64,000 bases of DNA from Botryllus schlosseri (Eukaryota). The stretch lies in contig CM119371.1 in the NCBI GenBank assembly GCA_051294905.1, positions 6,450,001-6,514,000 of the forward strand, written 5' to 3'. Both the position numbers and the translations under genes were made by a program. Positions 22,011 through 60,370 of this stretch are shown in pieces. Positions within the stretch are counted from its first letter, which is position 1; each line of letters opens with the position of its first letter. The notes under the pieces were generated by a model. It ran no database searches, was not told where the DNA came from, and saw nothing but the letters and a program-made list of their open reading frames with translations.

Positions 22011-23690
22011 CTATATTGTGGTGCCAGCATGCTCAGCCATATGATGCTTGAGGTGGTCCTTCCGAGTAAATGCTTTTCCACATATATCCCAATCACATGA
22101 ATGATTTTTGATTCCAGCATGCTTATTCATATGCAAATTGAGTGTACGCTTTTCAGTCACGGCTTCACCACATATAACACATGTATGATTTTTGATACCC
22201 GCATGCATATCCATATGAAGCTTGAGGGTACTCTTCTGAGTGAATGCTTTCCCACAGATATCACATTTATGATTTTTGATTCCAGCATGCATATACAAAT
22301 GAAGCTTGAGGTGAGCCTTCCTAGTGAATGCTTTACCACACACATCACATTCACGATTTTTTATTTGAGCATGCACACCCATATGACACTTGAGGGTCCA
22401 CTTCTCAGTGAAGGCTTTACCGCATATAGCACAAACATGATTTTTGATTCCAGCATGCATATCCATATGACGCTCGAGGGCACCCTTCCAAGTGAATGCT
22501 TTACAACATATAGCACATGTATGATTTTTGATTCCAGCATGCTTATCCATATGCAAATTGAGGGTCCACTTCTCAGTGAAGGTTTTACCACATATAGCAC
22601 AAACATGATTTTTGACTCCGGCATGCTTATCCATATGGCACTTGAGGGTACGCTTCTCAGTGAAGGCTTTACCACATATAGCACATGTATGATTTTAATG
22701 TCAGCATGCATATCCATATGACGCTTGAGGTGACCCTACCAAGTAAATACTTTACCATATACCTACATTCATGATTTTTTTATTCCAGCATGCACAGCCA
22801 TATGATGTCTGATGGAACCATTTGCATTGAATGCTTTACCACATATAGCACCTTCATGATTTTTGATGCCAGCATGCATATCCATATGAATCTTGAGGTA
22901 ACTCTTTCGAGTGAATGCTTTACCACATATAGCACATGTATGATTTTTAATGCCAGCATGCATATCCAGATGACGCTTGAGGGCAAGCTTCTCAGTGAAG
23001 GCTTTACCACATATAGCACATGTATGATTTTTAATGCCAGCATGCATATCCATATGACGCTTGAGATGACCCTTCCAAGTGAATGCTTTACCACATACAT
23101 CGCATTCATGATCTTTTATTCCAGCATGCACATCCATATGATGTCTGAGGGCACCCTTTTCAGTGAATGCTTTACCACATATAGCACATTCATGATTTTT
23201 GATGCCAGCATGCATAGCCATATGAAGCTTGAAGGTACCCTTCTCAGTGAATTCTTTATCACATATAGCACATGTATGATTTTTAATGCCAGCATGCGTA
23301 TCCATATGAAACTTGAGGTGACTACTTCGAGTGAATGCTTTACCACATATAGCACATGTATGATTTTTGATGCCAGCATGCATATCCATATGAAGCTTGA
23401 GGACACCCTGTCGGGTGAATGCTTTACCACATATAGCACATTCATGATTTTTACTGCCAGCATGCATATCCACATGACGCTTGAGGTGACTCTTTCGAGT
23501 GAATGCTTTACCACATATAGTACATGTATGATTTTTGATACCAACATGCATATCCACATGACGCTTGAGGGCAGCCTTCCGAGTGAATGCTTTACCACAT
23601 ACATCACATTCAACGTTGTTGACGCCAGCATGCATATCCATAAGATGCTTGAGGTAACTGTTCCCGGTAAATGCTTTCCAGTTTCCAATA
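22011..23690 (-). pseudogene. Tandem C2H2 zinc-finger array A (about 19 repeats), broken by frameshifts and a stop near 22690-22790
   Basis: ORFs 22769-23641 and 22011-22634 consist of 28-aa CxxCGKAFT.K..LK.HMDMH-AGIKNH units with an 84-bp period. The intervening unit has indels and a TAG. Further decayed fingers lie at about 21490-21650. The 5' ORF (9 intact fingers) could still be expressed. Confidence 0.85.
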
Positions 23691-24251
23691 TATTTCGAAT
23701 CGGCGTTTTTTCAAGTCGTGATCAATAGTTAATACTAGATCCACAGCAGGCTTTTCTTTATGACACTAAAAAAAGACCTACATATTTTCAGCATATAAAC
23801 TCAGTACAATTATAGTATGGCCACATCTGCAATGCATGAAAGTGTAGAACTATTTTAAACAAAGATCATTATAAGATTGTAGACAGAGCAATCACGATAC
23901 CCGGATTTTAATGTAGTCTTATTGTATCATTTAGTCGGACATCATCAATAGCACTATTGGATTGGTATAACAAGTTTCGATCATTTTAGTAACAAATAAT
24001 TCATAACACGAGAAATAAAACACAGCGCTGAGTGACAATAGCGCACTTTGATGCATATCTGCAATTGGATTATTAGTTGAATTTTTCTAGAACCATAAAA
24101 AAGTTATATATATACCTCTGACCATAAACATTGAGCAGCTTCAATCAATATGCCTTGAAGTAGTTTGCTCGGTAATAAAATTCACATTAACAATGCTACT
24201 TTTACTTTTTATATTGTTTGAAAATGGAATGGTATATTCGTATTGAAATGA

Positions 24252-25006: not shown

Positions 25007-25054
25007 GACTTGAGTTGACTCGTGTCACCTTCGAAAATCAATTGAATTGGTTGA

Positions 25055-28190: not shown

Positions 28191-29525
28191 TCATGATATC
28201 AAATCGGCAAAGTGAAATATCGCATATTACCACATGTGCACAAGACTTGCACAAGCTACTGGATTTCAAAATGCACAACTAAACTAGAACGAACGACATT
28301 TAAAAATCCGCATCTAACGAAAACACAACGAAATATAATCAATTCCTAAGCAACTCATCAACTATGTATAACCGGAATTTCAACACGAACATCAGTATCA
28401 AATTACTGAAGAATCAGATAGACAGAACTAACATAATACTGGATAAACTAAGCAATTATCAATGGCCGCAAGACCATCACATGAAAGAACACTGATCACG
28501 TCGATATTCAAAAAATATACGACAGTCAACAAATGTAGGCTACATCAATACTCAACAAATGTAAAACTATAGCTGTCTCTTTCAGATTGGCCGAGTTAAT
28601 GCAATAGGTCGGATAAATATCATAAAATGTGCACGAAAATATGGGGCTCATATAGTATGATGATAGTCAGACAGATGTAGTAATACAGTCACTCCAGGAC
28701 AATCACCTAGCACAGCTGGCATCGTAAAAATGATTAGGTTGCTACCTACTGCACAGCACATACATTATTCATATTACCTCAGGTACTAGATCATGTCCCT
28801 CTCCCGTTGTCTTCTTGAAATATACATAATTCAGCAACTCAATAAATTTACAATGACAGTCATCTATTTAAGATTCGATAAGTCACCAAGAATGCTTTCC
28901 TACATTAACACATTGGTGATTGATCATTTTTACATGTTCTAGCAAAAGAGAGTTTTTGATTAGAAGGATACTGTAGGTCATTTCGAATTCTTCCGAACTT
29001 TTTTTCACTTCATCGATACCTTGCGTGATGTTTTCAAATGATGATATTATTAATTACCTGAACTAAACATGTCAGTGACATGACACTAGCATCATATGTT
29101 CAGAGTAAATACTTCCATACACATTTTGCATTCGGATGTGATCATTCCAGTTTGCATATCGGTATGAATCCTGATGTTGCGAGTCAATCTACACATTTTG
29201 TACAAACACCACATTTTCAATCAACGTCACCATATATATATATGACACTTTACTATTCTTTCAAGGGCCGTTCTTTTCCATAAACACCTCACGTTTGAAC
29301 TGATCATGTCAATCCATATATTGCTTGATGGTAGCCGTTTCAAGAAGTTTTACATTTCCTATTTTGATACCGGGATGCAGAACCATATGACGCTTGTAGT
29401 TAGTTGGTGTTCTTAGTAAATGCTTGCCCGCTTATATCACAAATATATTATTTGATGCCAGCATGTATGATAGAATGAAGCCTGATATGTTTCTTCTGAA
29501 AATATGCTTTTCCACATATATCACA

Positions 29526-30947
29526 CTATTGATTTTTGTTGCCAGCATGCATATCCACATGACGCTTGAGGCTCCTCTTGTCAGGAATTGATTTCTCACA
29601 TATTTCATGAACATGATTTTTGATATCAGCATGTATATCAGAATGAAAGTTGAGATGACTCTTCTGTGTAAATGCTTTTCCGCATATATGACATTTATGA
29701 TTTCTGATGCGAGCATGCATGTGGGAATGAAGCCTGAGATTACTCCTCTGTGTAAATGCCTTCCCACATATATCACATTTATGATTTTTGATACCAGCAT
29801 GCATATTCATATGATCCTTGAGGTCGCTCTTCACTGTAAATGCTTTTCCACATATATCACATTGATGATTGTTGATGCCAGCATGCATATAAATATGACT
29901 CCTTAGGCTTGTTCTCGCAATAAAATCTTTCCCACATATATCACATTCATGATTTTTAATGCCAGCATGCATATTAGCATGAAGCTTGAGATAGCTCTTC
30001 AGTGTAAATGCTTTTCCACATATATCACATTCATGATTTTTGATGTCAGCATGCATCTCCACATGACGCTTGAGGCTCCTCTTTCCAGTAAATGCTTTCC
30101 CGCATATATCACAAACATGATTTCTGATGCCAGCATGTATATTAGAATGAAGCTTGAGCTGACGCGTTTGTGAAAATGCTTTTCCACATACTTCACATTC
30201 ATGAATTTTTATTCCAGCATGCACATCCATATGACGATTGAGGCTACAATTTTCAGTAAATGCTTTCCCACATATGTCACACACATGATTTTTGACTCCT
30301 GCATGCACATCCATATGACGCGCAAGGCCACTTTTTAAGGTAAATGTTTTCCCACATAACTCACAAACATGATTTTCGATGCCGGCATGTATATGCATGT
30401 GACTCTTCAGTCGGGCTTTCACAGTAAACGCTTTACCGCATACATCACATTTGTGATTTTTGAGACCAGCATGTATATTATAATGACACTTGAGATTACT
30501 CTTTTGCATAAATGCTTTTCCGCATATATCGCACTCATGATTTTTGACACCAGTATGTATATTTGTATGCTTCTGGAGGTCCCCCTTCCGAATAAATGCT
30601 TTTCCACATACTTCACATTTGTGATGTTTGAGACCAGCATGCATATTATAATGACACTTCAGATTGCTCTTTAGTTTAAATGACTTTCCACATATATCAC
30701 ACTTATGACTCTTGACACCAGTATGTATCTTGGAATGCATCTGGAGGTCACCCTTCCGAATAAATGCTTTTGCACATACGTCACATTTGTGATGTTCAAG
30801 ACCAGCATGTATACTATAATGACCCTTCAGATGACCCTTTTGTATAAATGCTTTTCCGCATATATCACATTCATGATTTTTGATGCCAGCATGCATATCC
30901 ATATGAACCTTGACGTGAACTTTCTGACTAGATGCTCTAGCACACAC
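29526..30947 (-). CDS. Tandem C2H2 zinc-finger protein B (15-16 fingers; 5' end undefined)
   Basis: Uninterrupted 473-codon frame of CDICGKAF..K..L..H...H-AGIKNH repeats. The first in-frame ATG is about 30902 and an upstream in-frame TGA suggests a spliced exon. Decayed fingers continue past the stop to about 29050. Confidence 0.85.
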   Translation of the reverse strand: MCARASSQKVHVKVHMDMHAGIKNHECDICGKAFIQKGHLKGHYSIHAGLEHHKCDVCAKAFIRKGDLQMHSKIHTGVKSHKCDICGKSFKLKSNLKCHYNMHAGLKHHKCEVCGKAFIRKGDLQKHTNIHTGVKNHECDICGKAFMQKSNLKCHYNIHAGLKNHKCDVCGKAFTVKARLKSHMHIHAGIENHVCELCGKTFTLKSGLARHMDVHAGVKNHVCDICGKAFTENCSLNRHMDVHAGIKIHECEVCGKAFSQTRQLKLHSNIHAGIRNHVCDICGKAFTGKRSLKRHVEMHADIKNHECDICGKAFTLKSYLKLHANMHAGIKNHECDICGKDFIARTSLRSHIYMHAGINNHQCDICGKAFTVKSDLKDHMNMHAGIKNHKCDICGKAFTQRSNLRLHSHMHARIRNHKCHICGKAFTQKSHLNFHSDIHADIKNHVHEICEKSIPDKRSLKRHVDMHAGNKNQ

Positions 30948-31376
30948 TTCACAATTCTCAAAAAATTGTCACAAGGTGCATTCAGAACATAAAGCTTAGC
31001 GATATGGCAACAGCCCACACCCCATATGTATTAAACAGTATACTAATCTAAAGAAAGAGCACATAGGCGTGATTATTGTGGCTATGCGGCATACATCGAA
31101 TTTCCACATCAGCGTAATCAATAATAATTAAACAAACCGATGCAACAAGATAAAGACAAGACAATGTTAGAGACGACAAAATCACCATTTTGATCAGCAA
31201 ACAATTGCAGCGATGCGACCTACTCAATACGAAGTAAGACACCTATTGTCTTGGTCATGGGAACAATCACTGATTGGGTGCCTGCTTTCTCGTTTGTTTG
31301 ATAATTATTGTCTGCTTGCCACATTCGTATCCCACAATCGCAATCACTTCAGCATCAACTGATGACAAGCTAGTCG

Positions 31377-33746: not shown

Positions 33747-33754
33747 AGCTAGTG

Positions 33755-35698: not shown

Positions 35699-37599
35699 AG
35701 TTAGTTGATAGACGTTATTGTGATATCAGTGGACAGTGGCTTAACCTCAGCATGTCAGACACCAAAGCTCTTTCTCCCTCTCTCACTCACTCTATCCTGC
35801 ACGTCTAATCCTTTTTTTAAATAGATTTTGACGTCTCCTTCCCACATGTTGGGGTTGGGAGTTGTCCTAAAGACGATGCGGCCGTGGTCTGTTGGGTAGG
35901 CCTACGGGCTCATGCTCATACATCGGGTTCGAGCTCAATGTATGTACACTGTACTATACATTGTACAGGCTACACATTTCGATTCGATCCCTGCTGTTGG
36001 CGATGCGGTGAAGTTGTATTGGGTTTTGTTTTGCTTTATGCGACTAGTAAATCTAGGGTGTATGCTTACATTGAATTTAGTTAGGTAATAAAGCCGGAAT
36101 ACCACACCCTGTTCTCAACTATAACAAATATATATGTAGGTCAACTAATAACAACGCACACCATATTATACAACATACATGTAACCAGGTTCGTAGCCAG
36201 CCAAGAAAAAAGGGGCAGAACTGAATAAAGCTTTGGAAAGCCTGACTAATAGGCGAATCTAATTACTCAATGCGAGTTAGCATTCTTAGCAATCAACAAC
36301 TTGAACGGGGATCATGTTGCAAAGCGCAAGTGCAGCAGATCTCATTCGCATTCAAATAAGTAATCGGCCTTGAAACAATGCAAGAACACCATTTCATAAC
36401 TAACAATCTACAGATATTGTGACGAATTTTGAAGTGATTCAGTTCGCCTGTGAGTAACGTCTGTTCGGCGTTTTAATTCAATTGATTTCGAACATGGGGC
36501 ATATACTAATTATACCGGCATGTGAATAATGACTTATTCGCAAAGTGAGGAAATCGCGAACAAGTTTCGGTGCGGCTATTCGTGGCTGAATGGGTCCCGG
36601 TGGGATACCCATCACGAATGGTATAGTCTAGTCTAGTATGACAAATGGTCAATTTTAAAGATTGAGGTCGTTAAGAGAGTGCACACGGCACATCAATGGC
36701 GTCAACAAATAAAATGTTAATCGAAGGTATTGTTTCTCCGGGCTTGCAGGCTACTTCTTCATTCTTTGAGTTAGGCAAAGCACCTTAGCGATTAACATCA
36801 GGCCAGGGGCATATCTGGTCATCAGGTGGAGACCTCATCGACGGACATCTGCGTGGCTTTGACATCGGGGCATCGAAATATCCAAGTCGGATGTTTTGAG
36901 GGATTTCGTCTACAAATCTTTTCGCAGATTAAGGATTGATGTGTGATTGCTTTGAAATATACTTTCAATCAGGTGTTACTTTCATGTTATAGGCTACATG
37001 TTCCCTTACAATAAACTGTTGATAATAAAACCAACTCGGCGAGCGCGTGACAAATGTAATTATTGCTTGTGCGATACGCTCAGAATATAAGAGGATGAGC
37101 TGATTGAATTTATTACTCTCGCGGTCACGACGAGAAAACAATGAACTACAGTACTCGCATCGTTCGATCGACGTCCTTCGTAGCAAATTGAAATTTGGCG
37201 ATATCGGGCTTTATTGGGGCTTTTAAAAGGGGTTAGATTCGAGCTTGGAAAGGGGCAGAAAGTTCTGCAATTCTTCCCACTCTCTACTCCCCTAGTGTTT
37301 AGTGTTGTGACCAGCAAGTCGCAACCTAGAAGTGAGCTGGATATCGTCGCGGTAAAAACAAAACTTATCTCAATAAGTATCAAAATCCGTAACAACTATG
37401 TCACGAAAGCGCGTAGCCGTGCGAGGCGAAGAAAAGCTGCTTTTCCGTGCGAGGTAAAGATTGTCATTGCTCCAGATATCTTGGAATCCCTTGCCACCAG
37501 TCGAAACTGAAAAATATCCCCTTCTGAGAGATGAACATCATTCCAAATTTGCATTTCGACACGGGGGCTCATTATTTTCCTCGGCAGGTCTCATTTGAC

Positions 37600-39450
37600 T
37601 AATGCAGCTCCCTATCGCTAAAGCAGACCTGGACCCCTACATAATTCTAGCTGTCTGATTACAGTCATTAGAGCGAAATGCCGGTAATTTAATTTTTCAT
37701 CTAATTTGTTCGCTATAATTATAATTCTAAATGAATATGTGAAATGTTTCTATGCTCTCATTTTTTTGACTTAATTTCAAGGTTCTTCGAAATTACTGCA
37801 GGAGAACTGTATAGTGCGACACAATTCAAGTTTGCTGTAAAAACATTCGGCCTTCACATGCTCATGAGAATCAATTCTGAATTATATGAACTGAACTAAC
37901 TTGATTCAATTTTCAAGTTTTTGCGAATTCAGAAATACTAATTCTGATCTTATATGGAAAGAAATGTGACGGCTTAGCTATAATTCAATTCTAGTCTATT
38001 TAGAAAAGCTGAAAGTTCTCTGGTTGTCCAAGACTGCCCTAAACCAATTATAAATACCCCATGACTTCGACTAATTTGTGGGGAGCACTGATTGGTGATG
38101 GATATCAAGTAGGTATGAATAGGAAAAGGCTCGGAGATATTGACTTGATCCCAGCACTGGCTACAAAGGATGGTAAGACTGAACTTCAAGATTTTAGCAC
38201 ACTTTACACAGTCATTGAGAAAATAATAATAAAAATGCAAACAATCAAACAGCAAATATGCTACAACTACGAGAATATACAAACTGTCTGTCACAACACA
38301 ATATCAGGTTTTATCTAACATGATATTTTGAAGGTATCATTGGATATCCTTCCTAAAGTTCATTGTACATGTCATTTATTTACATGATAAAGGCCGAGGT
38401 GGGTGTCTGACTGAAGGATTGCTCCTATAGTAGTTCCGCCACCCTCGTATCTTTTCAGTATATCGCAAATTTGTGGTGTATTTTAATAAATGATTATGAT
38501 GACAATGTCGGAATATGATTATCACAAAAAATGGGCAGGTTCCAGCAAAAGTATATATGGGTGAGGCCTCCGTGAGCCATACGTCTGTTTGATAGGCGAC
38601 CTTCTGAAATCACGATCACTTGAATTTTATATAAAGCTCAAGACTTGTAGATTGCAGGAACTACAATTCTAGTTAGTTGATGGTCAACTGATTACGGATT
38701 TTACTGAATAAAGTCTAGTTCTAATCGAGACTCAGTAATTCTAGTTCCACTTCAAGTTGCGTATTTTCAAAATCCCGTGCTCAGTTAATTAGTACGTAGG
38801 CTACATGTCTGGAAAGCACTATTATCCCAATGCAAAATACACCACATACTAAATTATCTGAATGAGCCTGACTACAGTACTGACTGACAAATTCCCACAA
38901 CATCTGTGCTAAAGTCCAAAGCTTAGCTAATAATGCCACAATTGAACAATGGAGCAACCAAGAAGCAAGGCACGGTGGTAAAGCTTCCGAAAGCGCCGTA
39001 TTTCTAATTGACTGCCGGGCACAGACACACCTCCATCACACCCATTCACTAAGCGTAAAACGGCCTGGTTATAAACTCGGCTCGACAGTCGACAAACATC
39101 ACTTTCGAAAGCGATACGAATGGGGCAACTCTAAACGGCGGACCGCGGAAAAGCAGAACATGTAATACTAAACGATGGACCAAGCGGAGCTGCGGAGTGC
39201 GGACCGAGCGGGCCATAAGAAAAAAGCTCAATACTAAACGGCGGAACGAGCGGACCGCGGAACTAGTGGAACTTGCAATACTAAACGGCGGACCGAGCGG
39301 AACTGCGGAGTGCGGACCGAGCGGACCGTAACAAAATAGCTCAATACTAAACAGCGGAACTTGCAATACTAAACGGCGGACCGAGCGAACCACTACAAAG
39401 ACCACAATGTAAACAGCGGACCGTGGCTCAGGCGCAACTCGCAAATGTCG
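37600..39450. repeat. Left arm of a diverged inverted duplication
   Basis: Blocks 37610-37710, 38130-38270, 38800-38940 and 39120-39425 match, in reverse-complement order, 43290-43370, 42550-42660, 41585-41735 and 41380-41560. Confidence 0.75.
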
Positions 39451-40619
39451 CAATACTCCTAATTTCTGAAAGGGTGCCTTTCATTTTGGCAATAAGGAGC
39501 AAACAGAACATAAGGACATGGTGTATAGGGTAACTATGGGGTGTCTTCAAGTGTGGCAACGTAGTACCAACACCCCCAAACATACCCCAGACAGGTTGCA
39601 ATGCAGTACGACCACACCTCAAACATGATGTCCGGGTTGTACCACAGTACGAACACACCCCAAAAATTCCCCTGACATGATGTCCTGGTTGCAATGCAGT
39701 ATTCTACTAACACACCACAGACATGGTATATATCAGTGGTTCCAAACCTTTTTCGACTCATCGCCCCCTTTTGAAGCTCCACGCCGATCATCGCCCCCCA
39801 AATATTGCGAACCGAAAAATGGGCATACAAACTGGTATCACTGGCGAGTTGACTAATAAAAAAAGGTCAACTTTTCGGCTCGAACTCGATATTACACTTT
39901 TACAGCTAAATTTTCATGATTTGACTAAAAAAAGTGATTTTTTCGACTTCACTCCAATCAGGACCGTAACAACACTTCGTCAGTCCCACCCCCCCAAAAA
40001 ACGTTGGTCTTGGGCCCCCAAAGGGTGATAAACCAAACCCAAGACCCAAGGATAGGTGATCCAACAAAATGACTATCAGTCTTAGGCAGTTGTGAGGAGT
40101 TCTAAGGCAGTGTGGGACATGAAAATGGTGTCCTGAACTGACAATACTTTCTATAGTGAGGTCATGTAGCACTCCAACCGCAATAGCTACATAAAACCAG
40201 CTTATATATGACGTTTTACTAGCCTAGTCCGAATAGCGACAGTCAAATTTTGGGCGAATCCCCTATTTTTAGCCGATATTCTTCCAGCTCAATGAGCACA
40301 CGGATGCAAGGGATGAATTACGAAAAAAATACCTAGAATATGTTTTTATGGTATAAGGCATGGGAATCGGACTGAAAACCACGACATTTTGAAAGTCGAT
40401 CAATTCTGAACAGCCCTAATGAGCATACATTACAAGCACTTTTTCGCCTTCTCGGCATTTGGCAAGGTCACCGACGTGGTGCTTATGGGGACTAGAGTGA
40501 AAACTCAACACTGTAGTTGTATTACTACAATATGATATATTTACATTTTACCTAAATTTGCTGTCTTGAGTGAATCTTATTACATGAAAGTATATTTTTC
40601 TTACTAGAAATATCTCTAA

Positions 40620-40992
40620 CAGCTGAAGGATTGCGCGAAAATTGGTAGGGACCAAATACATTCTGTGGACCCAGTTCTACCATTACAAGTCAAGGAAAGG
40701 CTGGTGTGTGCTCGCTTTTAGCGAAGCGCATAGAAAAAGTATCAACAGCGCCACGCATCTCTGGAGCCCTACGCAACAAGCGGGCTAAGGCAATCCATAT
40801 CATAACAATCTGACATATCCAATGTAGACTACTTAGACGTAGCCTACATACCTCTATCAGCTGAAGGATATTGCGCGAATATTGGTAGGGCCCTAATACA
40901 TTCCGTGGACCCAGTTCTACCCTTACAAGTCAAGGAAAGGCTGGTGTGTGCTCACATTGTACCGAAACGCAGAGAAAAAGTATCAACAGCGC
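40620..40992 (+). repeat. Direct repeat of about 130 bp (40620-40750 and 40858-40992)
   Basis: CAGCTGAAGGA..GTGGACCCAGTTCTAC..CAAGTCAAGGAAAGGCTGGTGTGTGCTC..GAAAAAGTATCAACAGCGC occurs twice. Confidence 0.9.
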
Positions 40993-41369
40993 AGCGTTTC
41001 TCTGTGGCGCGGTTGCACATTGCTATTGCCGCGACGTCAGCTGATCCCACTCTCGCCGCTCGGCCGCATCCTTGCTCTTGAGCTAGTCTCTCGTTTCGCC
41101 AGACATCATTGTTGCGTCACACTGCCAATCTACTCGACAATGAATAATTTGGGGCAGATTGTGGGGGTTCCAGGGCCATGAGTGGAATAAAATTTATATT
41201 TTCGCAAGCAGTACAGCGTCAGCTTCCGATTGAAACCCGATTCATCAAATTAAATGCTCGGCCAAGTCGGTCAAAAATCACCGTCAAATTGCCTGTACCC
41301 AAATGGAAACTGTGACGTGATACAATTTCATTGAACCGTGCGATTTGCTTGTGTCGACACCAGATAGGA

Positions 41370-43370
41370 CACTATGATTGAGCTATTTTGGTATGGTCCG
41401 CCCGCTCGGTCCGCTGTTTAGTATTACATGTTCCGTGGTCCGCCGTTTAGTATTAAGCCATTTCGTTTTGGTCCGCTTGGTCCGCAGTTCTGCTTGGTCC
41501 GCCGTTTAGTATCGCAAGTTCCACTAGTTCCGCAGTCCGCTCGTTCCGCCATTTTGAGTTGCCCGACGAATGCGCTCGATGCGTGTAGTAATGGCTGTAG
41601 GCAAGGTTTGGAAATTAGCACAGACATTGGTATGTGGGTATTATGGGAAGTTGTCAGTAAATAGTAGTCAGGCTGATCTTGATAGCTTGTTGTGGAACGT
41701 TTTGCATTGTGATACAGTGCTTTCCAGTCGTGTACCAAGACAATCTGGTACTGTGCCTGTTTGCCTGTTATTCCACTGCATCACAAGAATGTAATCTAGT
41801 CAGCTGACTCAGCGTTTATGTACGGTACACTGCATTAACTCTAGATTGAATCAACAGTCAATTGAATATGCTATATGGGATCAACAATTCGGAACATTGT
41901 TCCTGATAGTATGATATTATCAAAGTTCTGGCTGGGCACGGATTAAAAATACCATATCTTGAATATCTTAATTCCTGCCAGGTACAGTGTTCCATGCTTT
42001 TGCCTCTGATTAGTGATGTCAACATTATATTGCTATGACTAGCACGTTGACACGACTGCTGTCTTGTTATTTATTTGTGTTTCTTCTATTACGGTAACAT
42101 GAGTGCACTGTGTCACTCCACTGTTATGTTTAGATGAGTAATACGGTCTTTACAGGTTATATCATCATCTTCATTCATATTCATTTATCTGTGATGAGTG
42201 TTAAATTGCCATCTGTCTGTTTACTGGCTTTTCAAAATCCGCAACTAGAACTACTCACTTTGAAATGCCGCAACTAGAACTGGAATAAGAACTGCCTAAA
42301 ACATAAATCAGTTTCCGTCAACTAACCAGGATGGTTGTTCGTACAAGTCTGGCACATTCTGTAGAGTTACAATGAACACGATTATAAAATAACAGCGATT
42401 TATTGTTTATGCTGGCCTGATATACTTTTGACGCAATCAGCCGATTCTGTGTGATGTTTTCGAGCAGTGATATCTTAAGACCTTTGGAATACAATGCACG
42501 GTGCAATCGGATTTTGTAATTTGAGAGATAGTTTTTCATGTTATCGTACCAGTAGGCCACCATATTTTGCTTGTTTATTTTGTAATTTGTGTGGGTATGG
42601 CAGAGTGTTGATAGTTAGTCCTGCTATCAGTTGTCGACATAGCATTGGGATCAAGTCAAAAGTCATTTCGAGTCACTGCTATTTTGAACTCAATTTGTGT
42701 TTGCCATTAAGAAAATTTTCAGTCAAAAGTCACGAGTCAAGTCACAAAAATGATAATTTCACTGACAGTCTTCAGCAATTCATCGGTATGCCCCTGACAT
42801 TGAGAAGTGTTCTCCCTGATCACTAATCGGTGTCTGCCGTGTTTCCGGCCAAAATACAGTGACTTTTGAATTTGTAACTCGCTACACGAAATATGTGTTA
42901 CTATCACAATCTTGTGTGGCAATCGGAAATGCTGTATTGTTTTTAAAGAAATTCGAAAAGGTGCATTGTATGTTCACAACGTGATTTCGACGACTAGAAA
43001 ATTTAAGGCTTTTCCCAATGAGATTAAAATCAGAAATATACTAACAGTTATATCCAAATTTGACTAGAATTAGAATGTCTGACTTTGAAAAAAAATTAGT
43101 AGCCTAATGGAATTGAATCAAACTGCAACCATAATCAAGTTCAGTTCATACCAAATCAAGAGTTCAGGCACGAGAATGGCTAACGTCTGTACACTAAGCT
43201 TGCCTCGTTCCGCATGATACATTTCTCCTGTAGTATTTTCAAGAAAACCAGACATTAGATGGGAATTAAAATAAGATGATACAAACATATTTTACAAATT
43301 AGATAAGAACTATATTACCGGCTTTTTTCTCCAATTAGTCAACTAGAATAATGTAGCTATCCGAGTCTGT
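41370..43370. repeat. Right arm of the diverged inverted duplication
   Basis: For example, the reverse complement of 41660-41735 (CTGGAAAGCACTGTATCACAATGCAAAA..AGCCTGACTAC) matches 38809-38872 (CTGGAAAGCACTATTATCCCAATGCAAAA..AGCCTGACTAC). Confidence 0.75.
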
Positions 43371-44487
43371 TCTCAAGATCACACCAACGGCCACTCACTC
43401 GACGAGATACACGCCAGAAATTGTCATGTCAACTGCGAGAAATGTCCGGGTGTAGTGAGTATAGCTGAAATAGTGAAAAGTCTTTCAATCCCACAAAACA
43501 CCATACGTGTCGGTATGTTCATAGGGAACACTAATTAGTCGCAGTCGCTGAATTAATTATTGTTCCGTAAAGTTTGCATCTCAGTCCGGTGTCAGGAAGT
43601 ATTGATGTTCGTCTCACATTTTGTTTGGGTAAAGTCACATTGTGATTTGTATTATACACCAACATAGAGCTGTTTGATTACTGTCTTTTTATCGTTGGTT
43701 CATATATTCATTTATTTATACTGTACAAATGTCATTAGCGTGTCTGGGTACAATGGTTCGAGTACCCGAATCCTAATCGGGTATTTTGGTAATGATTCGA
43801 AGTCAAGTAGTGAAAGATCATTTTTCAAGTACAGTAATCGTACACTCCTTGATATTAATAGATATATTATCACTACCATATATAGCTGATTCTATTTGTT
43901 GTGAGTAAAGCAATCAGTCATTGTGAGCTAAATTTTCTTCTGAAAATGCAAACACTTCCTTGTCATGTATCTATCTAATTAGGAGAGCTATTGCTATTTG
44001 AAAATTGGGTTGATATTTCCATGCTGCTAAGATAACGCTCGTTGTTTACCAATACAAGTGCCACTGTGATAGTAGGTATGTAGGTAGGACGTACATCTCA
44101 AAGATTGTTTAAGCGTATTAAGCAGCATATCCCAAAATTGATTCGGTCAAAAGCATGCGTAAATACTCGCACGGAGCTTACACGTCAGTGCGAATTGACT
44201 GCCAAAATAGACTGCTATGACGGTTACCAAGCATATGTTTCGTCAATCGGTCAGCATTTGATTGAAAATCTCGCCTGTGCACAGCACTATGATGACAATA
44301 TGTTCACTGTCATTGCGCGTGGTAGGTCTTTGTTTCATCTAAAAGTGCTGGAGTCTACTATTATTCAGTTGAACAAACCTATTCTATGTAGACAAAAAGA
44401 TTTCCTCTATAACCTACAAATTTCTCATTAGTGCATGTGTTTTGTGCGTGTAACTGTTTATTTACGAATTGCATTGCTACTATAGTA

Positions 44488-45130
44488 CGATTTCCAGTAA
44501 ACTCGGCCCCCGGTCACTTCGACCGTCGGTGAATTCGGCCAGGGCCAGAGTAACAATAAAAGTTACAATACCATTACCTAACCTGAACCCTAATCCTAAC
44601 CCTAAACCTAACCCCTAACCTCGAAATCACTTGATAATATTATAATTATGTAATCTAATACACATAATTAGTTCGTAATACAATTTCACACAAAGTTCTC
44701 CGAGGGCCGAATATACCGATTGAATTCGGCTGTCGGTAAATTCCGCCCCGTAAACATCGGCATATATATATACATATACATATTTATACGCATACCCTGT
44801 TCTCCAAATCACTTGATAATAATATAATTATGAAATTACATCACATTAATAGTTTTATTATAAAAAATTCTCCGAGGAACGAATTGACCGAGTGAATTCG
44901 GCCGTCGGTAAATTCGGTCCCCGTGAATATCCGCGCTATCTCCCGTGATTACGCGATCTACGCATACCCTGACATCCAAATCAGTTAATAATAATATAAT
45001 TATGTAATTAATTCATGTTAACGGTTGGTAATACATTTTAATACAGTATTCTCGGAGGGCCGAATTTACTGATGTCATGGGCCGAATTTATCTGGCTGAA
45101 TTTTCCGCGGGCCGAGTTTACTGGCAACCC
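44488..45130. mobile_element. MITE with telomere-like hexamers inserted in the Penelope-like element
   Basis: TIR core CCAGTAAACTCGGCCC at both ends and TSD TATAGTA(C). (CCCTAA)-like tract at 44575-44620. The copy at about 7175-7190 shows the empty site. Confidence 0.85.
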
Positions 45131-45279
45131 TATAGTACTGTATGTCCGTATACTTCATATTTTGTTATTCTGCCATTAGTACAATGCAAATTTCAGTGTT
45201 TGTGATTTTGATTGTTGCGTCATACTTTGCCTTCTTGGTTTTGGTTTTAAATCTGTTTAAATCCCTTTAGTGTGCCGTT

Positions 45280-45316
45280 AACTCTTGAAAAGAGGCACCT
45301 GAAAAGTCTTTGAGTT
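45280..45316 (+). ncRNA. Atypical minimal hammerhead ribozyme motif (U3-A8 variant)
   Basis: AACUC-UUGAAAA-GAGGCACCU-GAAA-AGUCU-UU-GAGUU, in the 3' region of the Penelope-like element. Confidence 0.55.
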
Positions 45317-46209
45317 AATAAATAGTATTATACAATGGATATTGTATTGAAATAGCTTACAGGCGAAAATCTTACAAAAAAACAATTTTGATTTGAAATA
45401 TATCAGTAATATTATCTTCCAACTGATTAATTGAAATTTAGAATAGGTGGTTGACGTAAAACTGATTGAATTAATGCCACGTTATTTGAGTATATAGGTG
45501 AATACTTATGTACATGATTGGAGTTTATTTATGTACATGATGATATCCTTGGAAATCTGTAACTATGATGAATCTATTACCCCTAAATATAGTGATGTTG
45601 CTGTATTGTGATTTAAAATAGTCTTCTGCGTGTAAAAATAACAAGTAAATTGATTTTCTAAACTTGATAGTACGACTGAGCCGATTTTATATCAGGTCAT
45701 TACCGCGAAAATGGGAGATTTTGGTCAAAATAGCCCCATGGGTTATCTCCACAACAATAGCCAATTTGAAAAAAACCAAGGTCATATTTGGAATCAGTGC
45801 CCTTCAGAACCCCCAAAACCACTCTTACGTTTGTCTGCCTAAAAATGTGTTGACCAGTGTAATATTTTTGTAATTTTGACGCTGTTGTTTATGCACAGTT
45901 GATTTTGGTGCACCAGTATTCTATAATAATTCATCAGTTGTGTAACGTGATAGATTTTGGTGTTCGTGATTATGCAAAATTTGTGATTTGCTGAAGGCTT
46001 GCAGATTATCGTATGGGGTATTGCTATTTATTACACTGGTCCGTTTTTGCTAATACCTCCTGTATTTTAGACCGGGTTGCTATAATATAGGAATTATATT
46101 ACCATGTAATAGCTCATTCCAAGCTATCGTTGAATACTCGTTTTCAAGCAGAGAGCGTTTGATGTGTGATGCTTGAAGAAGTAAAGTAATATACAGATAA
46201 TCCAGAAGA

Positions 46210-47637
46210 ATGACAAGGAAGATGTGCTGGATCTGTGGAAAGAACATCCATTGTAAGGACGGATTGAAAGCTCACTTGGGATTCCACCATATAGACAGAA
46301 ATACCGAATGTGAGATCTGCGGAAAAACCTTTGCTGCAATCACTTTATTGAAAAAACATTTAATATCGCACACTTATTTGAAAAATCATGAACGCAAGGG
46401 CATTGGCAAAGGGTATAATCCGATCGGTCACTTGAAAAGACATGCGGATACACGTACTGTTCACCTTGGAGTCAAAAACCACGACTGTGACATCTGTGGA
46501 AAGTCGTTTGTGCGGGTTGGCGACCTGAAAATGCATGGAAATATACATACTGGAAGATATGCATGTCAGATCTGCGGAAAAGCGTTTGCTCGGATCGGAG
46601 ACTTGAAAACACATGAAAATACACATACTGGAGTCAAAAACCATGACTGTCAGATCTGTGGAAAAGCGTTTATCCATCTTGGTAACTTAAAACAACATGA
46701 AAATACACATACTGGAGTCAAAAACCATGCATGTCAGATATGCACAAAAGCGTTTACCCAGCTTCGTGGCTTGAAAAGACATGAAAATACACATACTGGA
46801 GTCAAAAACTATGCATGTGAGATCTGCGGAAAAGCGTTTGCTCAGATCGGCCACTTGAAGACACATGAGAATACACATACTGGAATCAAAAACTATAAGT
46901 GTCAGATCTGCGGCAAAGTTTTTGCCCGGCTTGGTGACTTGAAAAGACATGGGAATACACATGCTGGAGTCAAAAACTATGCATGTCAGGTCTGCGGAAA
47001 AGCGTTTACCCAGCTTGGTGACTTAAAAAGACATGGGAATACACATACTGGAGTCAAAAACTATGGATGTCAGGTCTGCGGAAAAGCGTTTACCCAGCTT
47101 GGTCACTTGAAAGATCATGGAAATACACATACTGGAGTCAAAAACTATGAGTGTCAGATCTGTGGAAAAGCGTTTATCCATCTTGGTAACTTAAAACGAC
47201 ATGAAAATACACATACTGGAGTCAAAAACTATGCATGTCAGATCTGCGGAAAACTTTTTGCCCGGCTTGGTGACTTAAAAAGACATGGAGATGCACATAC
47301 TGGAGTCAAAAACTATGCATGTCAGATTTGCGGAAAAGCGTTTACCCTGCCTGGTTACTTAAAAAGACATGGAAATACTCATACTGAAGTCAAAAACTAT
47401 GCATGTCAGATCTGCGGAAAAGCGTTTACCCGTCTTGGTAACTTGAAACAACATGAAAATACACATACTGGAGTCGGAAACTATGCATGTCAGATATGCG
47501 GAAAAGCGTTTACCCGGCTTCGTGACTTGAAAACGCATGAGAATACACATACTGGAGTCAAAAACTATGCATGTCAGATCGGCAGAAATGTTTTTTCCCA
47601 GCTTGGTGACCACAAAAACCATGGACATACACATTAG
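46210..47637 (+). CDS. Tandem C2H2 zinc-finger protein C (15 intact fingers)
   Basis: Open 475-aa frame with an ATG start. Homogeneous 84-bp repeats encode CQICGKAF..LG.LK.H.NTH-TGVKNY. A candidate acceptor (ATACAG) lies just upstream and decayed fingers follow the stop. Confidence 0.9.
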   Translation: MTRKMCWICGKNIHCKDGLKAHLGFHHIDRNTECEICGKTFAAITLLKKHLISHTYLKNHERKGIGKGYNPIGHLKRHADTRTVHLGVKNHDCDICGKSFVRVGDLKMHGNIHTGRYACQICGKAFARIGDLKTHENTHTGVKNHDCQICGKAFIHLGNLKQHENTHTGVKNHACQICTKAFTQLRGLKRHENTHTGVKNYACEICGKAFAQIGHLKTHENTHTGIKNYKCQICGKVFARLGDLKRHGNTHAGVKNYACQVCGKAFTQLGDLKRHGNTHTGVKNYGCQVCGKAFTQLGHLKDHGNTHTGVKNYECQICGKAFIHLGNLKRHENTHTGVKNYACQICGKLFARLGDLKRHGDAHTGVKNYACQICGKAFTLPGYLKRHGNTHTEVKNYACQICGKAFTRLGNLKQHENTHTGVGNYACQICGKAFTRLRDLKTHENTHTGVKNYACQIGRNVFSQLGDHKNHGHTH

Positions 47638-47987
47638 GGACTCAAAAATTTGCATGGCAGACATGCGGAAAAGCGTTTACCCACCTTGGCGCCTTGGAAA
47701 GAGATGGAAATACACATACAGGAGAATAGCGGAACGCATGTCTTTTTCTTCTCACAAAGATGATCTCGAACATGATGCAGTGATATTGACAGAAATACCA
47801 AAATATGCTGTTACTTAGAGTGGACGTCTATTCACTCTGCTATCATATCAAGAGTATTGACAATACGATTTAATATTGCGATCAAATCTCTACGAGTACT
47901 CAACACATATATCTTTGAATCACCTTTACGGCTAAATGTTTAATGTGTCGGGTGTGTGTAAAAATGGCGGTGGACTTGTATCTCAGT

Positions 47988-50811: not shown

Positions 50812-53800
50812 TTCTTGAGTAGTGCAGAAGAAGGGTAAAAGTATTTCCTCATTATAAACGTAATGTACCTCTAACGGCGCCAGTCGAAAATGCATTAGAT
50901 CTGTCATGTTCATTACGAGCAGACTTGGATAACCAGATAATTGTTTTTCTATAATGTATTGGGCTAAATATGGCAAAGTACTTGTAATGTAATTCCAATC
51001 TAATTAATCAACTAATTCTTTATATATAGTGTGAAACGAGTCAGGATTGGTGAACTATTCTCATGCTTATGATAATCAAATCCAATTTGACATGAACTGA
51101 ACTTGATGATTTCTTTTCCCAACTGAGTAATTAAATTCTAATCTAATTTGGATGGGTGTTCAATATATTTCTAATCTACTTTGAATAATGTGATAATTTT
51201 CTGGTGACACAACTGTGATCACTAGGGCTGGGCACAATGATTTGATGACTCAAATCTGAATCGAGTATCAATTCAAATAATTTGAGTCGAGTAGTAAGAA
51301 ATGACTGTTTCGAGTGCTGACAATATACGCTCCATGTCTCAAAATGGAAAAATTATATTAACCATGAGCTGAATTGAACAATTGAGAATTATATTTCTTA
51401 CTGTGAAAAGTTGTGAACCTTGATTGGTCGTATCGCAGTATACGAAATATGTAATACAAAGCTATGCACGTTGCTGAAAATGACATGTCTGTGAAGTTGT
51501 GAGCAACCTAAAGCATTGTCCCATAGTGTGATGAAATAGTAATGGTAAAAAAAGTGCAAAATAATCTTTATAATATGACTAGAATAGGTATCATATTCTT
51601 TGTGGTGTTGCTATGAAGTTAACATGAGTGACTCAAACTCGTTACTCGATTCAGAAGCAAATCACTCAGGTACTTTATTTTAGCCAGCCCGATTTATTTC
51701 ACGTTCAGTATCAAAAAGCAAGGATTAAATAAAGTTTGGAAGGTTCACCGGTCTGCAAAAACTGTCTTCAAATTTGACTGTCCCTCTAACTCAGAAAGGT
51801 TGCGAACCACTGATTTAGATGATGTGTCTAACAAATATTATTGTTTTTCACATTCCAGCGATCCAATTACCTTTTATTTTTGTTGTCAGTCGCTGATGAA
51901 AGTTCACAAAAAAAGATGCGTCATCACAGAACCAGAGACTCGTTATCACACGCAACAGATTCTGCTTGGTGTTGTTTATCGTCACGATTGTAAAATCATT
52001 CACAGAGATATCAAGGTAACATTGTATGCAGTCGTGCTTTCGTAAATAATCTTCGAAAATTATGTCAGTACCAGAGCCGACCGATTATTGGTTTGTCAAT
52101 TTGGGGATAAAACTATGCACCTTATATACCACTAACGTAAATCATTGATTGCGCTACAAGCTCTCTAAAGTGATCTTGTACAAACTACTGTATTTTCAAC
52201 ATACGCAACAAGAATGAGAACTGCTCACTTTTCATAATTCTCCACTAGAACCAACGACCATTGAAAATCTGCTACTAGCTTACTGTAATACACAACTTGC
52301 TAATGATTTTTAGGTTGCTAATTTACAAATAAGCTGAGCTGTATCGGGGATAGAATTGACATCTCAAATTTGTGGGGTTTCGAGTTTGAAACAGGGGTGC
52401 TCTCGAACCGTAATACTCTTGGTTTGAGTCAATACACAATTTGACTCGAGTCGTGTCACTAGAAAATAAGGACTGGTTTCGAGTCATGAATCTAGCCATT
52501 ACAGCCCTGCCACTGTGAATATAATGCCGGTACTACATCTCATTATAAAGATAATTTAGTCATTTTTCGACCATATCTATTTCACTGTACTCTGTGACAA
52601 TGCTGTGGCTTGATCACAATGTAGGCAATACCGCCTATCGAGGTTTACAGCCTTGCACAGTGGAAATGCCATTGAAACTATAATTCTCATTGATAAATTA
52701 CCGTAACTGTTACTGACAACAAGTGTATATTTTCAGTAGATATACGAATATAGCGACACGATACCAACACTAACCTACCATGATTTTTTTTGTCCACAGC
52801 ATGTTGTCTATTGACCCATCTCAACGACCTTCTGCGCAATCGAGTTGCGTCCAGCTACATACCTCTACATACCTCAAAAACTACAGACCATCTGCTTGCC
52901 TATCACAAATGTCAACGCGAGACAATCTTCACCGGTGAGTTTTTACAATTCCACAGCAAGTTTACGATTAGATCTTAACCAAAATTGGATTTTTGAGCCA
53001 ATACCGATAAAATCGATAGCTATAGCACCTTCACCGATAAGCGAAGTCGGACAAATAAAAGATTTTCTTCTTTTCCGAATAAGATAAGCATTAGAATAAG
53101 AGCAGCCTTTTTTTATGCCAAGATATGGCTAACTGAGTTTATGCGAACTCGGAAAGTAGAAATAAAGTGAATGTTGATCAGCTTTTTACTCGAAAAATCG
53201 GCTCTCACTGCTTGGCGCAGAATCATTGCATTTGATATTGAAGTCGAATTGAAGTTGTGGATAGTTGTGGCCAGCCCTACTCATTGATGTTATCTTGTGG
53301 TCCCCGAAAGTAGGCTACTTTGTAAATTTTTGGTATTTTCTCTCTCTCTCAAAGTGACTTATGCATGAGACTGTCGTGTCATAATTCCTGGATCGGTTTT
53401 CAATTAACCTCCATTTGTTTATCTCTAAAGCATCAGCCAATTGGTTCAATCAGGTAATTGTAGTTGTGTAAGTTTATTTAGAAGAGCGAAATGTTGGTAA
53501 TCAGATTCTCATTTAATTTATGACATGTTGCTATGCTCTCATATCAAGCCTAATCTAATTTCTGGGTTATCCTTAAAATGCTACCAGAGAACTGTATCAT
53601 ATCATGCAAAATGAACCAAACTTGCAGTACCGACATTTTCCATTCTCACATATACGAGAATCAACTTTAACCTGATAAGAAGTTATATTGATTCAATTTC
53701 CAAATTTTCATGATCTCACTCATTCCAATTCTAATCTAATTAGGAAAAGCTGCATAGTTACGAATCTAAATGTGCTCTGGTTTGGAAAAAAGCTTTGTAG

Positions 53801-54913: not shown

Positions 54914-57900
54914 GTATGGCCACCCATGTTTCAGACATCAATTTATTAAAATTTCTATCAAATCAATGCATCACAAGATAGGAGGGGACCGAAACGACTT
55001 GGTGAAGTCTTTTAATCAGACACTCACCTTGCCTCAGCATGGCACACCTCCATGAAAGTGCGACGTCTCCACGGGATCTACCACAGTGTGTGCAAAACAA
55101 AACTTCCTTGGAGCTTGAATATAATGGCATTCATACGACATGTCCACCAACACCAATTCACCATTGTCTCCAATAACAAATTACCCTAATGCAATTCACA
55201 ACGTTTATAATGATTTATATTACCAAATTCACTATAGACCTAGTTTACCGAAGGATGAATTCATCGAGGGCCAAGTTCAATGGTCAGTGTGGTTCCAATC
55301 ATGATACTTGAATCTCTTCCTATCCAAATAAGGAAACAGTTCCCTATTTGAAATTAAAATTTTGATTCATATGATAGTTTTAAATCCATAAATCCTGGTT
55401 ACCAAACAATCTTACAAAATGTGAGTTAATGTCTGTGATTTTATTACTATTTGTGATTTTCACCAGAATGTTGGCGAGCGACCCATCTCAACAATCCTCT
55501 GTAAAGAAAGTGCGGGCCAGTGAATATTTCAAGGGCTTCATTCCACAGAAGCTACCCACAAACTGCTTGAACAGCTTGCTTGCCCATACTTTCAGAAAGC
55601 CAACTACAGCAAAGGAGTCCTCTGCAGAGTTTGATCAATAAGATTTTTTCGCAGGTCTTTGCAAAATCGAGTTCCTAAGTGATTCGATTCTGAATCGAGT
55701 CTCATTCATGATAACATGAGCCCAACCTATATCGTATTTTTAAGATAATAGCGATAAGTACCACTTTCACTGATATCTCCGACGTATTCATCTGTTATTG
55801 AAATAATATGGCAACTAGCTTAAGGCACATTTTCAAACCTTCAGATCATTTATTCAAACAACTGGCGGCTGTTACTATGATAAGACATGAATTAAACAAC
55901 AAAGGACGCTTGTAAGCAGAGGCAGTCAGTAACAATACTACTTATACTTACTCAGAGTACTCAAGTAGGTTTTGCCATATACTTGCATTATTTACTCAAG
56001 TCACTCAAATGATTTTAGACGACTTGTGTACTTCCTATGTAACAGTTCAGTGTTCATGCAAAACTAGGCGTATAATATTTACTTGATTACCTTCCTTGTA
56101 AATCGCAACTTCTGCTTATAATAGAGTAGAAATTACGACATTACTTCTATACTCGAGTTCGAACGACGACTATTTTAACCACTTGTAAGTTATAAGAATA
56201 TTCCACGTTAGTGCAGATTTCAGTCCTCTGACTGCACGCTACCATGTTGTCACGTCACGAAAATTGTCGATATTTTTACCTATAATGGGCAATACCTTTC
56301 AAACTCTACGATAGACTCGACATTTTTGGCCAATCCATATAATCAGTCGTGCTCTCATTACATGGTACCTTATTAAAATAACAGGTGAACATTCGTGAAC
56401 TGGTAATATCTCCTGATTGTACATTTCAGCTTCTTCCTAGTTCAAAACTCATTCCGCATATAAAACAGTATCTGAATACAATGCAAATTTCATCTGACTT
56501 GTGCAAACTGCTGTACATCAGAATGCTAGAAACTAGAAATAGAACTAGAACTACTCAGTTTTCAAAACTAACTAAAACTAGCCGTACTCAAAAACAGTTG
56601 GTTATTTGACCGTCTACTATCGAGCTCGGTAATTTGGACAAAACTGTATTTCAGGCACTGCTCGTGAATGAGCATGAGAAAGACAAAATGTGTCAAGAGA
56701 TTTAATCTTCATCGCAGTTTGAATCACAAGCATGTTGCTGGATTTCATGGATTTTTTCAAGACAATGATTATGTCTACATCGCTCTCGAGTTGTACAAAA
56801 GAAAGGTAAAAGTATTTCCATGATATAACTGTAATGTCTCCAAACGGTGGAGGTCACAATTCATCAGCCCTGTAACGTTCATTAGGCCTACTAGCAGACT
56901 TGAACAACTAGACAATTATTGTTGTCTAATAATACTAATTAGAACCAAATACTGGTAATCTACTTGTAATCTAATTTGTTGAATGTTTCTAAGCTCTTAA
57001 TTCTATTGTGATTAATTTTCTGGTTTCCTGAAAATGCTGCAGGAGAATTTTATAGTACGTAACTAGCAAAGCTTGGTGTACATACATTTTGTATTCCGTT
57101 ACTTTATGACAGGGAATATAGAACTGATGTCAAGTTACCTTGATTTTTGTTGTGTTGCTTTCATGAATTAAGCAATTCTAATCTAATTCACAACTTTCAA
57201 CTATGCATTCACAGTAACGTGTATTGACTCGGAAAACTTACCGCGTTCCTCTTATCAAGAGCGACCGGCATGATAAAGGACATAAAACAGGTTAGATTTG
57301 AAACCGAATCGCTGTGTTCAGGTTCTCTACCACCAATCCGTTATTCTTTTCTAATTTGAGGAAAATGTGTAGCTATAATTGTAATTGTTATCTAGTTTGG
57401 AATGTCCGAAAATTTTCTAGTTACATTACTCTGATCACTTGTCAAGGGCTGGGCACTCTGATTTCAGGACTCGAACTGAATCGTGTATGTACTATAATGA
57501 TTCGAGTTGAGTAGTGAGAGATTATTTTTTCGTGCAACACTGAAAGTATACGCTAATTGTCGAAACAGGTTGAGAAGTGCAGCTTTGAATGTGCCTGACA
57601 AATACTGTAGTTGTTTGCATTCTAGCAATCCCATGAGTGTTGATTTTTGTCGCTGATGGAACTCAACAAATGAAGGCGCGCCATCACAGAACCAGATACT
57701 CGTTCTTATATAGACCAGATTGTGCTTTGAGTTGTTTACCTTCATGATTGTAAGATCATTCACAGAGATATCAAGGTAACATGGCTTGCAGCGTTGCAGG
57801 AACCAGATATGTACAAACTACTCTATTTTCAAAACGCGCGATAAGAGCTATAATTACCGTAACGAACATTAAGAATCTGCAACTAACAAACATACATACA

Positions 57901-59094
57901 ACTAACTAATAACGTATAATGCAAATTACTGTATTGTAAATGAGCTGAGAAATATTGGAGATAGAATCGGCATTTCGACTTCTGAATGCACTGATTTTGA
58001 CCCCAGAAATTCACCCCCAGCCTCCCTCACTTATAGGAGTTATGTCTCTGATCTAGCAATGGCTGCAAGAACATCAAACAACAGAACACCGGTATCGCGA
58101 TTCACGCCAAACGTTGGCACATGTTTTGTAGCTGTTTGGCAACTAAATTTTTTGAAACTCTGCAACTAGAATTAGAACTGGAACTAGTCAAGTTAACAAT
58201 AGTTAGTTGACCTTCAACTAACTACATTATTAGTTTAGCTATATTGCCTACATGTTGAACTGAATGAGAAATTTGTCTTGACAACTCGAAAACCTATTTC
58301 TGAAAACCAACAAGATTGTAGATTTGAGTCCAGCCACAAACGTCGACTTTGACAGCCAAACTAAGAATGCATTTTGAGCCACACCCAAATAAATATCCCC
58401 GGAAATTTATGACAAGAATGGACATGGGTTGGGAGTGGACACCTAGTTGGGTTTCGTCATTATTTCTCAACATTGAACTTGGTATTTAAAAGGAGTCATA
58501 AAAAAATGACTCGAGTCAGACTCGAGTCGAGTCATCACAACCCTGATTTAAATAACTATACATGATTCAATCATATAATGTAGTTCCGCGCCTCCAACAG
58601 TCTTGTCAAATCCCTTCATTGTGACTTGTGAAAATTACTTTTTGGGGCCTTATTCAAGAGTTTTGTACTGTAACTTGATCGTTGATTTATTGCCGATGAT
58701 GATTTGTACCACATCAGGAGGTCGCCAACTAGCTATACAAATTCGAGTGATTGACTGGTTTTATTCTGAGAGTAAAGTACTACTTTTTATGTGGTCATAT
58801 GGAGGAAGAAAACCGACCAATCCACATTTCAACCTAATGCACGCTTGCAAAGGATTGATTTTTTTCCAACTCAACACAAATGTATTGCTATTGTGGATTA
58901 ATTGTATCAGTTAATTATTTTACTCGACAGGTGCTGCTAATACAGATGATACACGGAAACCTGTAGGTGACAAGCCAATCAACAGACTTTCCTATGGCAG
59001 AAATGGCAGCTCGGCTCAAGAAATCGATCGATACCAATCCAACCTTGAAATCCCCTATAAATATCTGTGAGTATTCATTTTGTGACAACTGATT

Positions 59095-59521
59095 GTATCA
59101 CTCATTATGACGTCATAAAAGAATGTAATACGTCATGTACCGTTTATGCCCCCACAAGGAATATAATGCCTTTTATCCATTTCATAAATGATAATTTGGT
59201 ATTTTTCCGACCATACCGATTTCATTCCACTTGGTGACAACTTTGTGGTATAATCAAGACTTCGGAAATGTGCTACGTCCAGTAACCTTCGTAGCTTCGT
59301 ACCATACGTTTCGTATGCTACGATACCGCCAATCAACGTTTCAAGGCTTCAGCAGTGAAAATTAGTATCGAAACTATAATTCTCGTTGATAAATTAACTT
59401 GCAGTGGCGAGAAGCTTATAATTTCAGTACTCGAAAAAGTCGTATTTTACTACTCGACTCGAATCATTAAAATTAATACTCGACTCAGATTCGAGTACTC
59501 GAATCATTGTGCCCAGCCCTA
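59095..59521. mobile_element. TAGGGCTGGGCA-family MITE, left end missing
   Basis: Colinear with 24570-25006 and ends CATTGTGCCCAGCCCTA. Confidence 0.85.
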
Positions 59522-60336: not shown

Positions 60337-60370
60337 ACCCCTGACGAGCGTCAGCCGAAAATATTCGGGT
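60337..60370 (+). ncRNA. Minimal type I hammerhead ribozyme in an approximately 150-bp repeat (60235-60390)
   Basis: ACCC-CUGACGA-GCGUCAGCC-GAAA-AUAU-UC-GGGU, one mismatch from the copy at 24252-24285. Confidence 0.75.

Follow-up and report, generated by a model that had tools for sequence, protein, structure and literature searches.

An array of zinc fingers with a homogenised scaffold and variable base-reading residues raises the question of what kind of gene it is, and whether such a pattern by itself records rapid evolution. One such array (gene A; plus-strand open frame 46201-47637, ATG at 46210) was analyzed together with two sister arrays (B and C) in a stretch of 64,000 nucleotides, referred to here as the window (Table 1). 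At a probability of roughly 0.6, gene A was taken to be a member of a lineage-specific cluster of zinc-finger-only poly-C2H2 genes in an invertebrate animal, with contacts that have been retuned.

Table 1. Zinc-finger arrays of the window and parts of gene A (positions are those of the window).
Feature	Position	Strand	Remarks
Sister array B	22011..23710	-	16 canonical fingers in two frames; 82% unit identity
Sister array C	29403..30968	-	480-codon open frame; 16 canonical fingers; 71% unit identity
Probable 5' untranslated stretch of gene A	46140..46209	+	read from sequence
Gene A	46210..47637	+	475 codons and stop; from codon 6 on, zinc fingers and no other domain
Fingers 1-3	46225..46563	+	divergent, N-terminal; shortened linker before finger 4
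Fingers 4-15	46564..47571	+	homogenised 84-bp units; variable contacts
Finger 16	47572..47637	+	decayed; second cysteine lost; ends in stop codon
Finger 17	47655..47729	+	out-of-frame relic behind stop

Gene A encodes 15 canonical C-x2-C-x12-H-x3-H fingers in tandem, joined by 7-residue linkers as in poly-C2H2 (Kruppel-type) proteins, and was matched to Pfam zf-C2H2 with an E value of 1.3e-77. An 84-bp period was detected at 46467-47724 (15.1 copies; Tandem Repeats Finder). Across fingers 4-15 the linker is TGVKN(Y/H)x, and the helix residues read RHQQRQQHRLRR at -1, DNGHDDHNDYND at +3 and TQRTRRDRRRQT at +6; the residues given in the original prediction were exact. A degenerate finger without cysteines sits between fingers 2 and 3, and decay is under way at both ends of the array.

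The units of fingers 4-15 were compared at the DNA level and had a mean pairwise identity of 84.7% (range 75.0-97.6%); the 84-bp repeat is thus real, and its earlier description as near-identical was generous. Identity to arrays B and C was 59-60%, and a tree built from 44 fingers split the 12 core units of gene A from every finger of B and C at 100% bootstrap support, as expected of the homogenised scaffold that had been proposed. The pair of fingers 5 and 11 shows 2 differences in 84 bases, against 11-14 for the flanking pairs, and has in common a patch of 78 bases with one mismatch; gene conversion in patches or intragenic unequal exchange would fit. Within gene A, the 84-bp units have undergone duplication and patchy homogenisation. 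A three-finger higher-order repeat was ruled out, since mean identity hardly changes over lags 1-11 (0.79-0.84). In all 12 units the two cysteines, the two histidines, Phe and Leu are unchanged at the protein level, with synonymous changes present at the second Cys and at the Leu codons; the zinc-finger fold is under constraint.

Diversity was then ranked by position over fingers 4-15. The triple -1/3/6 was the most variable of all 3276 triples and of the 1330 formed by non-structural positions, so the claim that variation is concentrated at the contacts held, but in part: these three positions carry only 32% of amino-acid diversity. Variation also occurred at -2 (0.61), at the position preceding the first Cys (0.53) and at that following the first His (0.49). 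Extra alleles numbered 5/5/3 at codon positions 1/2/3 of contact codons (3 sites each) and 14/9/15 at those of non-contact codons (25 sites each); the even spread over codon positions that the original prediction had named as evidence against itself was absent.

A codon model with the contact class (-1/3/6) fixed in advance returned an omega of 3.56 at the contacts of gene A versus 0.46 elsewhere (p=0.0012 against omega=1), and contact values of 3.23 in array B and 1.92 in array C. Gene conversion is described as undermining tree-based codon tests (PMC5519329). Because it breaks the tree assumption of the codon test, a tree-free ratio (contact pN over overall pS) was also used, and neutral contacts were simulated under gene conversion. 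The tree-free contact ratio of gene A was 2.0-2.4, and contact dN/dS overall came to about 2-3.6. Four diversity-matched neutral scenarios reached the observed ratio in 10-23 of 2000 runs (kappa 4) and 51-62 of 2000 (kappa 2), and a fifth scenario, in which CpG mutation was strong and diversity lower, did so in 102 and 193 of 2000; overall, neutral simulations matched the observed ratio in 0.5-10% of runs. Two results were discarded: an omega of 8.55, obtained on a tree built from non-contact codons and inflated by the poor tree, and a first simulation (0-3 of 500 runs), which had excess synonymous diversity and was replaced by one less favourable to selection. Positive selection on the contacts of gene A is likely, not proven, and the diversity and dN/dS check proposed beforehand came out in its favour, with the contacts most variable. 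Selection at -1, 3 and 6, a feature of KRAB-ZNF and FiNZ-ZNF transposon repressors, was thereby found in gene A with moderate support.

The contact differences might instead be old or unconstrained, the scaffold having been gene-converted while the contacts were preserved, as in ZNF180, or drifted with CpG mutation, with the arms race not ongoing. This was considered unlikely. In its favour, at the middle base of codon -1 the units read CG or CA (5 and 6 of 12), synonymous divergence at the contact codons of array B is raised (0.47 vs 0.21), and a stronger form of the pattern is found in a conserved gene. Of 164 proteins retrieved, a query-biased set, 153 had at least six fingers, and 13 of these outscored gene A for the share of diversity at -1/2/3/6, and seven of the 13 were mammalian proteins named ZNF180, with shares of 0.42-0.48 versus 0.36. 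Like gene A, ZNF180 has a homogeneous scaffold with its top diversity exactly at -1, 3 and 6; unlike gene A, it has KRAB, and among mammals its contacts have stayed frozen (identical in six of the seven, with one change in the seventh); it served as a control. A uniform scaffold with variable contacts in one gene therefore does not by itself demonstrate fast evolution and is no evidence of an arms race, a caution that the control supplies; the earlier reading of the within-array pattern alone as rapid diversification or as PRDM9-like was not supported as it stood, ZNF180 being stronger yet frozen and the array about twice as diverged as human PRDM9. Against old or drifting contacts, synonymous divergence in gene A is not raised at contact codons (0.22-0.25 vs 0.18-0.21), one scaffold CpG remains CG in 10 of 12 units with TG and CA absent there, all four bases occur among units at the first base of codon +3, and the neutral simulations mostly fall short of the observed ratio. 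Retuned contacts remained the preferred reading. The broken array B has a contact signal as strong as that of gene A, with the strongest tree-free ratio (3.0), so the signal records past selection rather than present function, and selection on the contacts of gene A may likewise be past rather than present.

Arrays A, B and C lie within 26 kb. Frameshifts and a stop near 22700-22790 disrupt array B, and decayed fingers lie behind the stop of array C; this is a cluster with turnover, as seen in ZF271-like expansions, and the family with turnover that had been foreseen was borne out by two sister arrays, one of them broken. One of the breaks in array B falls within an A homopolymer and may be an artefact of assembly; further lesions follow it. 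A fourth array was not found in the window by tblastn. The 3' flanks of B and C are common to both (73% over 530 bases). CpG observed/expected ratios were 0.41 for B (22011-23710), 0.48 for C (29526-30968), 0.75 for A and 0.92 for the whole window, and the low values in B and C may reflect gene-body methylation.

The DNA upstream of gene A is repeat-rich: summed contig depth, a quantity that differs from copy number, exceeded 1000 in 24 of 30 bins, with 42 in the lowest. Long, imperfect inverted arms were seen at 38800-39390 and 41400-41735, separated by some 2-2.9 kb; GC-rich motifs recur inside the arms, and other repeats are nested between them (38800-41735); the element is presumably a relic of a foldback- or Mutator-type DNA transposon. 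Palindromic or inverted-repeat elements at 2543-3177, 3518-4082, 11388-11545 and 61409-62085 are likely miniature transposons, and a sub-threshold match to a hAT transposase dimerisation domain was recorded at 11969-12109 (+; E 0.0017). The DNA that carries a kinase-domain fragment (51632-52045, +; Pfam Pkinase, E 1.5e-07) recurs several times in the window, with similar pieces near 24570-27525, 43170-43850 and 56650-60575. A 650-base skip at 44479-45130, with 9 bases that fit both sides, was observed in RNA and DNA runs alike and is a presence/absence insertion or an empty form of a repeat, not splicing.

Expression was assessed by mapping four of 24 RNA/DNA runs (3-6% of each raw run read) on 30960-46460, with the core array outside this interval; reads from repeats dominated the mapping. 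The 5' end of gene A falls in the final bin (45953-46460), where bulk RNA reached a depth of 0.15 on one strand and 0.13 on the other, and single-cell depth was 0 and 3.34. RNA reads in this bin may be derived from paralogs or repeat ends, because its DNA contig depth is 1286. Single-cell run X21 contains 41 molecules that end at 43216 and more than 300 reads that continue into other sequence behind 43258-43259; these are probably transcripts of a paralogous locus elsewhere.

These depths bear on whether gene A could be a copy that died recently or is dying and is expressed no longer, a reading judged improbable. The slight bulk RNA depth at its 5' end would suit such a copy, as would the fingers decayed at both ends, the relic finger behind the stop and the broken neighbour. 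A dead copy is harder to reconcile with 475 open codons, with zinc ligands intact in 12 of 12 core units and an omega of 0.46 outside the contacts; the single-cell depth of 3.34 on one strand (0 on the other) also speaks against it, although those reads are possibly from a paralog or repeat end.

An effector domain was sought in two ways. Pfam effector families were matched by none of 142 plus-strand frames of 30 or more codons in 31000-46200, where two sub-threshold, unrelated matches occurred, and by none of 138 frames of 42 or more codons in 1-31000, where the sub-threshold hAT match was the only one; the reach of this search was frames of these lengths, in the window, and domains known to Pfam. 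In addition, 120 finger-masked zinc-finger proteins bearing KRAB, SCAN, SET, BTB or ZAD were used as tblastn queries against the 64-kb window, and all seven rows outside the arrays fell on one weak BTB-like stretch (14134-14259). This stretch (best E 4.5e-4, 25 residues, 32 kb away) was rejected, as it lacks a Pfam match and is followed by a stop. KRAB was found neither in the window (tblastn) nor in the upstream frames (Pfam), and PR/SET, KRAB and SSXRD as in PRDM9 were found neither by SET-bearing queries in the window nor by Pfam in the upstream frames. The impression that no KRAB, ZAD, SET, SCAN or BTB domain is visible was accordingly upheld, with none confirmed by either search. The product of gene A is most likely a zinc-finger-only, sequence-specific DNA-binding protein encoded by one coding exon; a zinc-finger-only product would be the simplest reading.

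It is doubtful that the array is instead the last exon of a spliced gene, with a small N-terminal effector exon that Pfam does not know, in the manner of KRAB or FiNZ genes. KRAB and FiNZ genes are as a rule laid out in two exons, and FiNZ itself was once absent from domain libraries, as stated in PMC10547256. T-rich, acceptor-like sites lie just upstream of arrays B and C, and in gene A four AG dinucleotides (46204, 46207, 46216 and 46220) lie between the in-frame stop and finger 1. These follow purine-rich sequence, however, and the better, T-rich candidate acceptors (46147-46151) are upstream of two in-frame stops (46174-46176 and 46198-46200), the first of which closes a 4-codon upstream frame with its ATG at 46162. 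The upstream stretches of A, B and C also have no significant similarity to one another, and a read joint into the gene A exon was absent among the 15 joints listed of 325. One coding exon remained the preferred structure.

For a zinc-finger-only gene of this kind, the following course is proposed. The 84-bp units have duplicated and homogenised within gene A, the ends of the array are decaying, and selection probably favoured amino-acid changes at the base-reading positions with the fold held. By analogy with other animals, such turnover may give the proteins new targets, of which transposable elements are the most plausible; these might be repressed by occupancy or through partner binding in trans. 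A far-reaching extension, held to be a long shot, is that a KRAB-less chordate lineage maintains a megabase-scale zinc-finger-only battery in which PRDM9-style conversion reshuffles fingers into polymorphic specificity subunits that recruit a separate chromatin enzyme in trans, silencing transposons or positioning recombination.

A zinc-finger recognition code was used to predict targets. It gave a 15-base motif for fingers 8-12, of which 8 matches at 3 mismatches were counted versus 1.14 expected, and 7 of the 8 fell in the repeated arms of the transposon-like element at about 38800-41735, 5-7 kb upstream. Shuffled finger orders scored as well in 108, 48, 64 and 27 of 150 cases for 3, 4, 5 and 6 fingers, respectively. 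The local transposon was therefore rejected as a target and its matches ascribed to chance, in a test that is weak and limited to one window; the comparison of predicted motifs with local elements suggested at the outset gave nothing better than shuffled orders.

Gene A resembles PRDM9 in its 84-bp coding minisatellite, concerted evolution and variable contacts. The contact-diversity share of fingers 4-15 was 0.415 with published columns and 0.363 with -1/2/3/6 (0.31 and 0.28 for all 15 fingers; 0.362 for array B with -1/2/3/6). Values given in PMC5519329 are 0.687 for human PRDM9, 0.910 for mouse PRDM9 and 0.33-1.0 for full-length vertebrate PRDM9, and 0.29-1.0 is given for full-length cnidarian PRDM9 (bioRxiv 10.64898/2026.09.07.749791). 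Compared with the human and mouse proteins, gene A is less homogenised and less contact-focused, and KRAB, SSXRD and SET were not found in the searches above. A PRDM9 gene positioning meiotic recombination hotspots, with the array as its zinc-finger exon, has next to no probability: the minisatellite, a first finger that is divergent and stands apart from the core, and a share of 0.36-0.42 at the low end of the full-length range would fit, but similarity to SET, KRAB and SSXRD is absent from the 64-kb window and upstream frames, an in-frame stop lies just before the ATG, unit DNA diversity is 0.153 versus 0.079 in human and 0.034 in mouse PRDM9 (PMC5519329), and the neighbours are similar SET-less arrays. 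On present evidence gene A is not PRDM9, and its pattern is known from many animal zinc-finger families.

Close relatives or alleles above 55% identity were absent among the matches listed from protein collections, where the best identities were 50%, 41%, 55% and 48% among the best 120, 45, 120 and 150 matches, respectively; two of these searches scored 8000 candidates only, and long arrays dominate the rankings. Among the open-licence literature listed, no study dealt with selection at contact sites or homogenisation within genes in the zinc-finger clusters of ascidians; the size of the C2H2 family in tunicates is reported to range widely, from 72 to 310 genes (PMC8122590).

The lineage expansions described in PMC2604467, KRAB-less fish included, show positive selection at -1/3/6 and share with gene A the C-x2-C-x12-H-x3-H fingers, 7-residue linkers, single exon and clustering; many members are described there as lacking an annotated N-terminal domain, as gene A apparently does. 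Those comparisons were made between paralogous genes, whereas the signal of gene A is among the homogenised fingers of one gene, and the linker is TGEKPYK there versus TGVKN(Y/H)x here. Effector-less tandem clusters with pseudogenes are reported from bugs (PMC6444547), where the ZF271-like/APEZ genes of aphid and milkweed bug are like gene A in their tandem fingers, lack of KRAB, clustering and turnover by pseudogenes; they belong to a separate lineage of apparently independent origin and are supported by expression, whereas gene A is known from sequence. Across animals, the number of zinc-finger genes is reported to track that of retroelements (PMC10547256). In the same source, the FiNZ-ZNF genes of cyprinid fish form clustered KRAB-less arrays in repeat-rich DNA with variable base contacts, as gene A does, and differ from it in their conserved upstream coding exon and in transposon repression backed by knockdown. 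How KRAB-less arrays act is posed as an open question in the accounts of bugs (PMC6444547) and FiNZ (PMC10547256), and gene A would weigh more heavily on it if its family were expressed, polymorphic and effector-less; public bulk and single-cell RNA runs exist for its organism. Set beside these systems, gene A adds one lineage to the known rule that animals repeatedly expand and retune zinc-finger arrays, with KRAB or without it.
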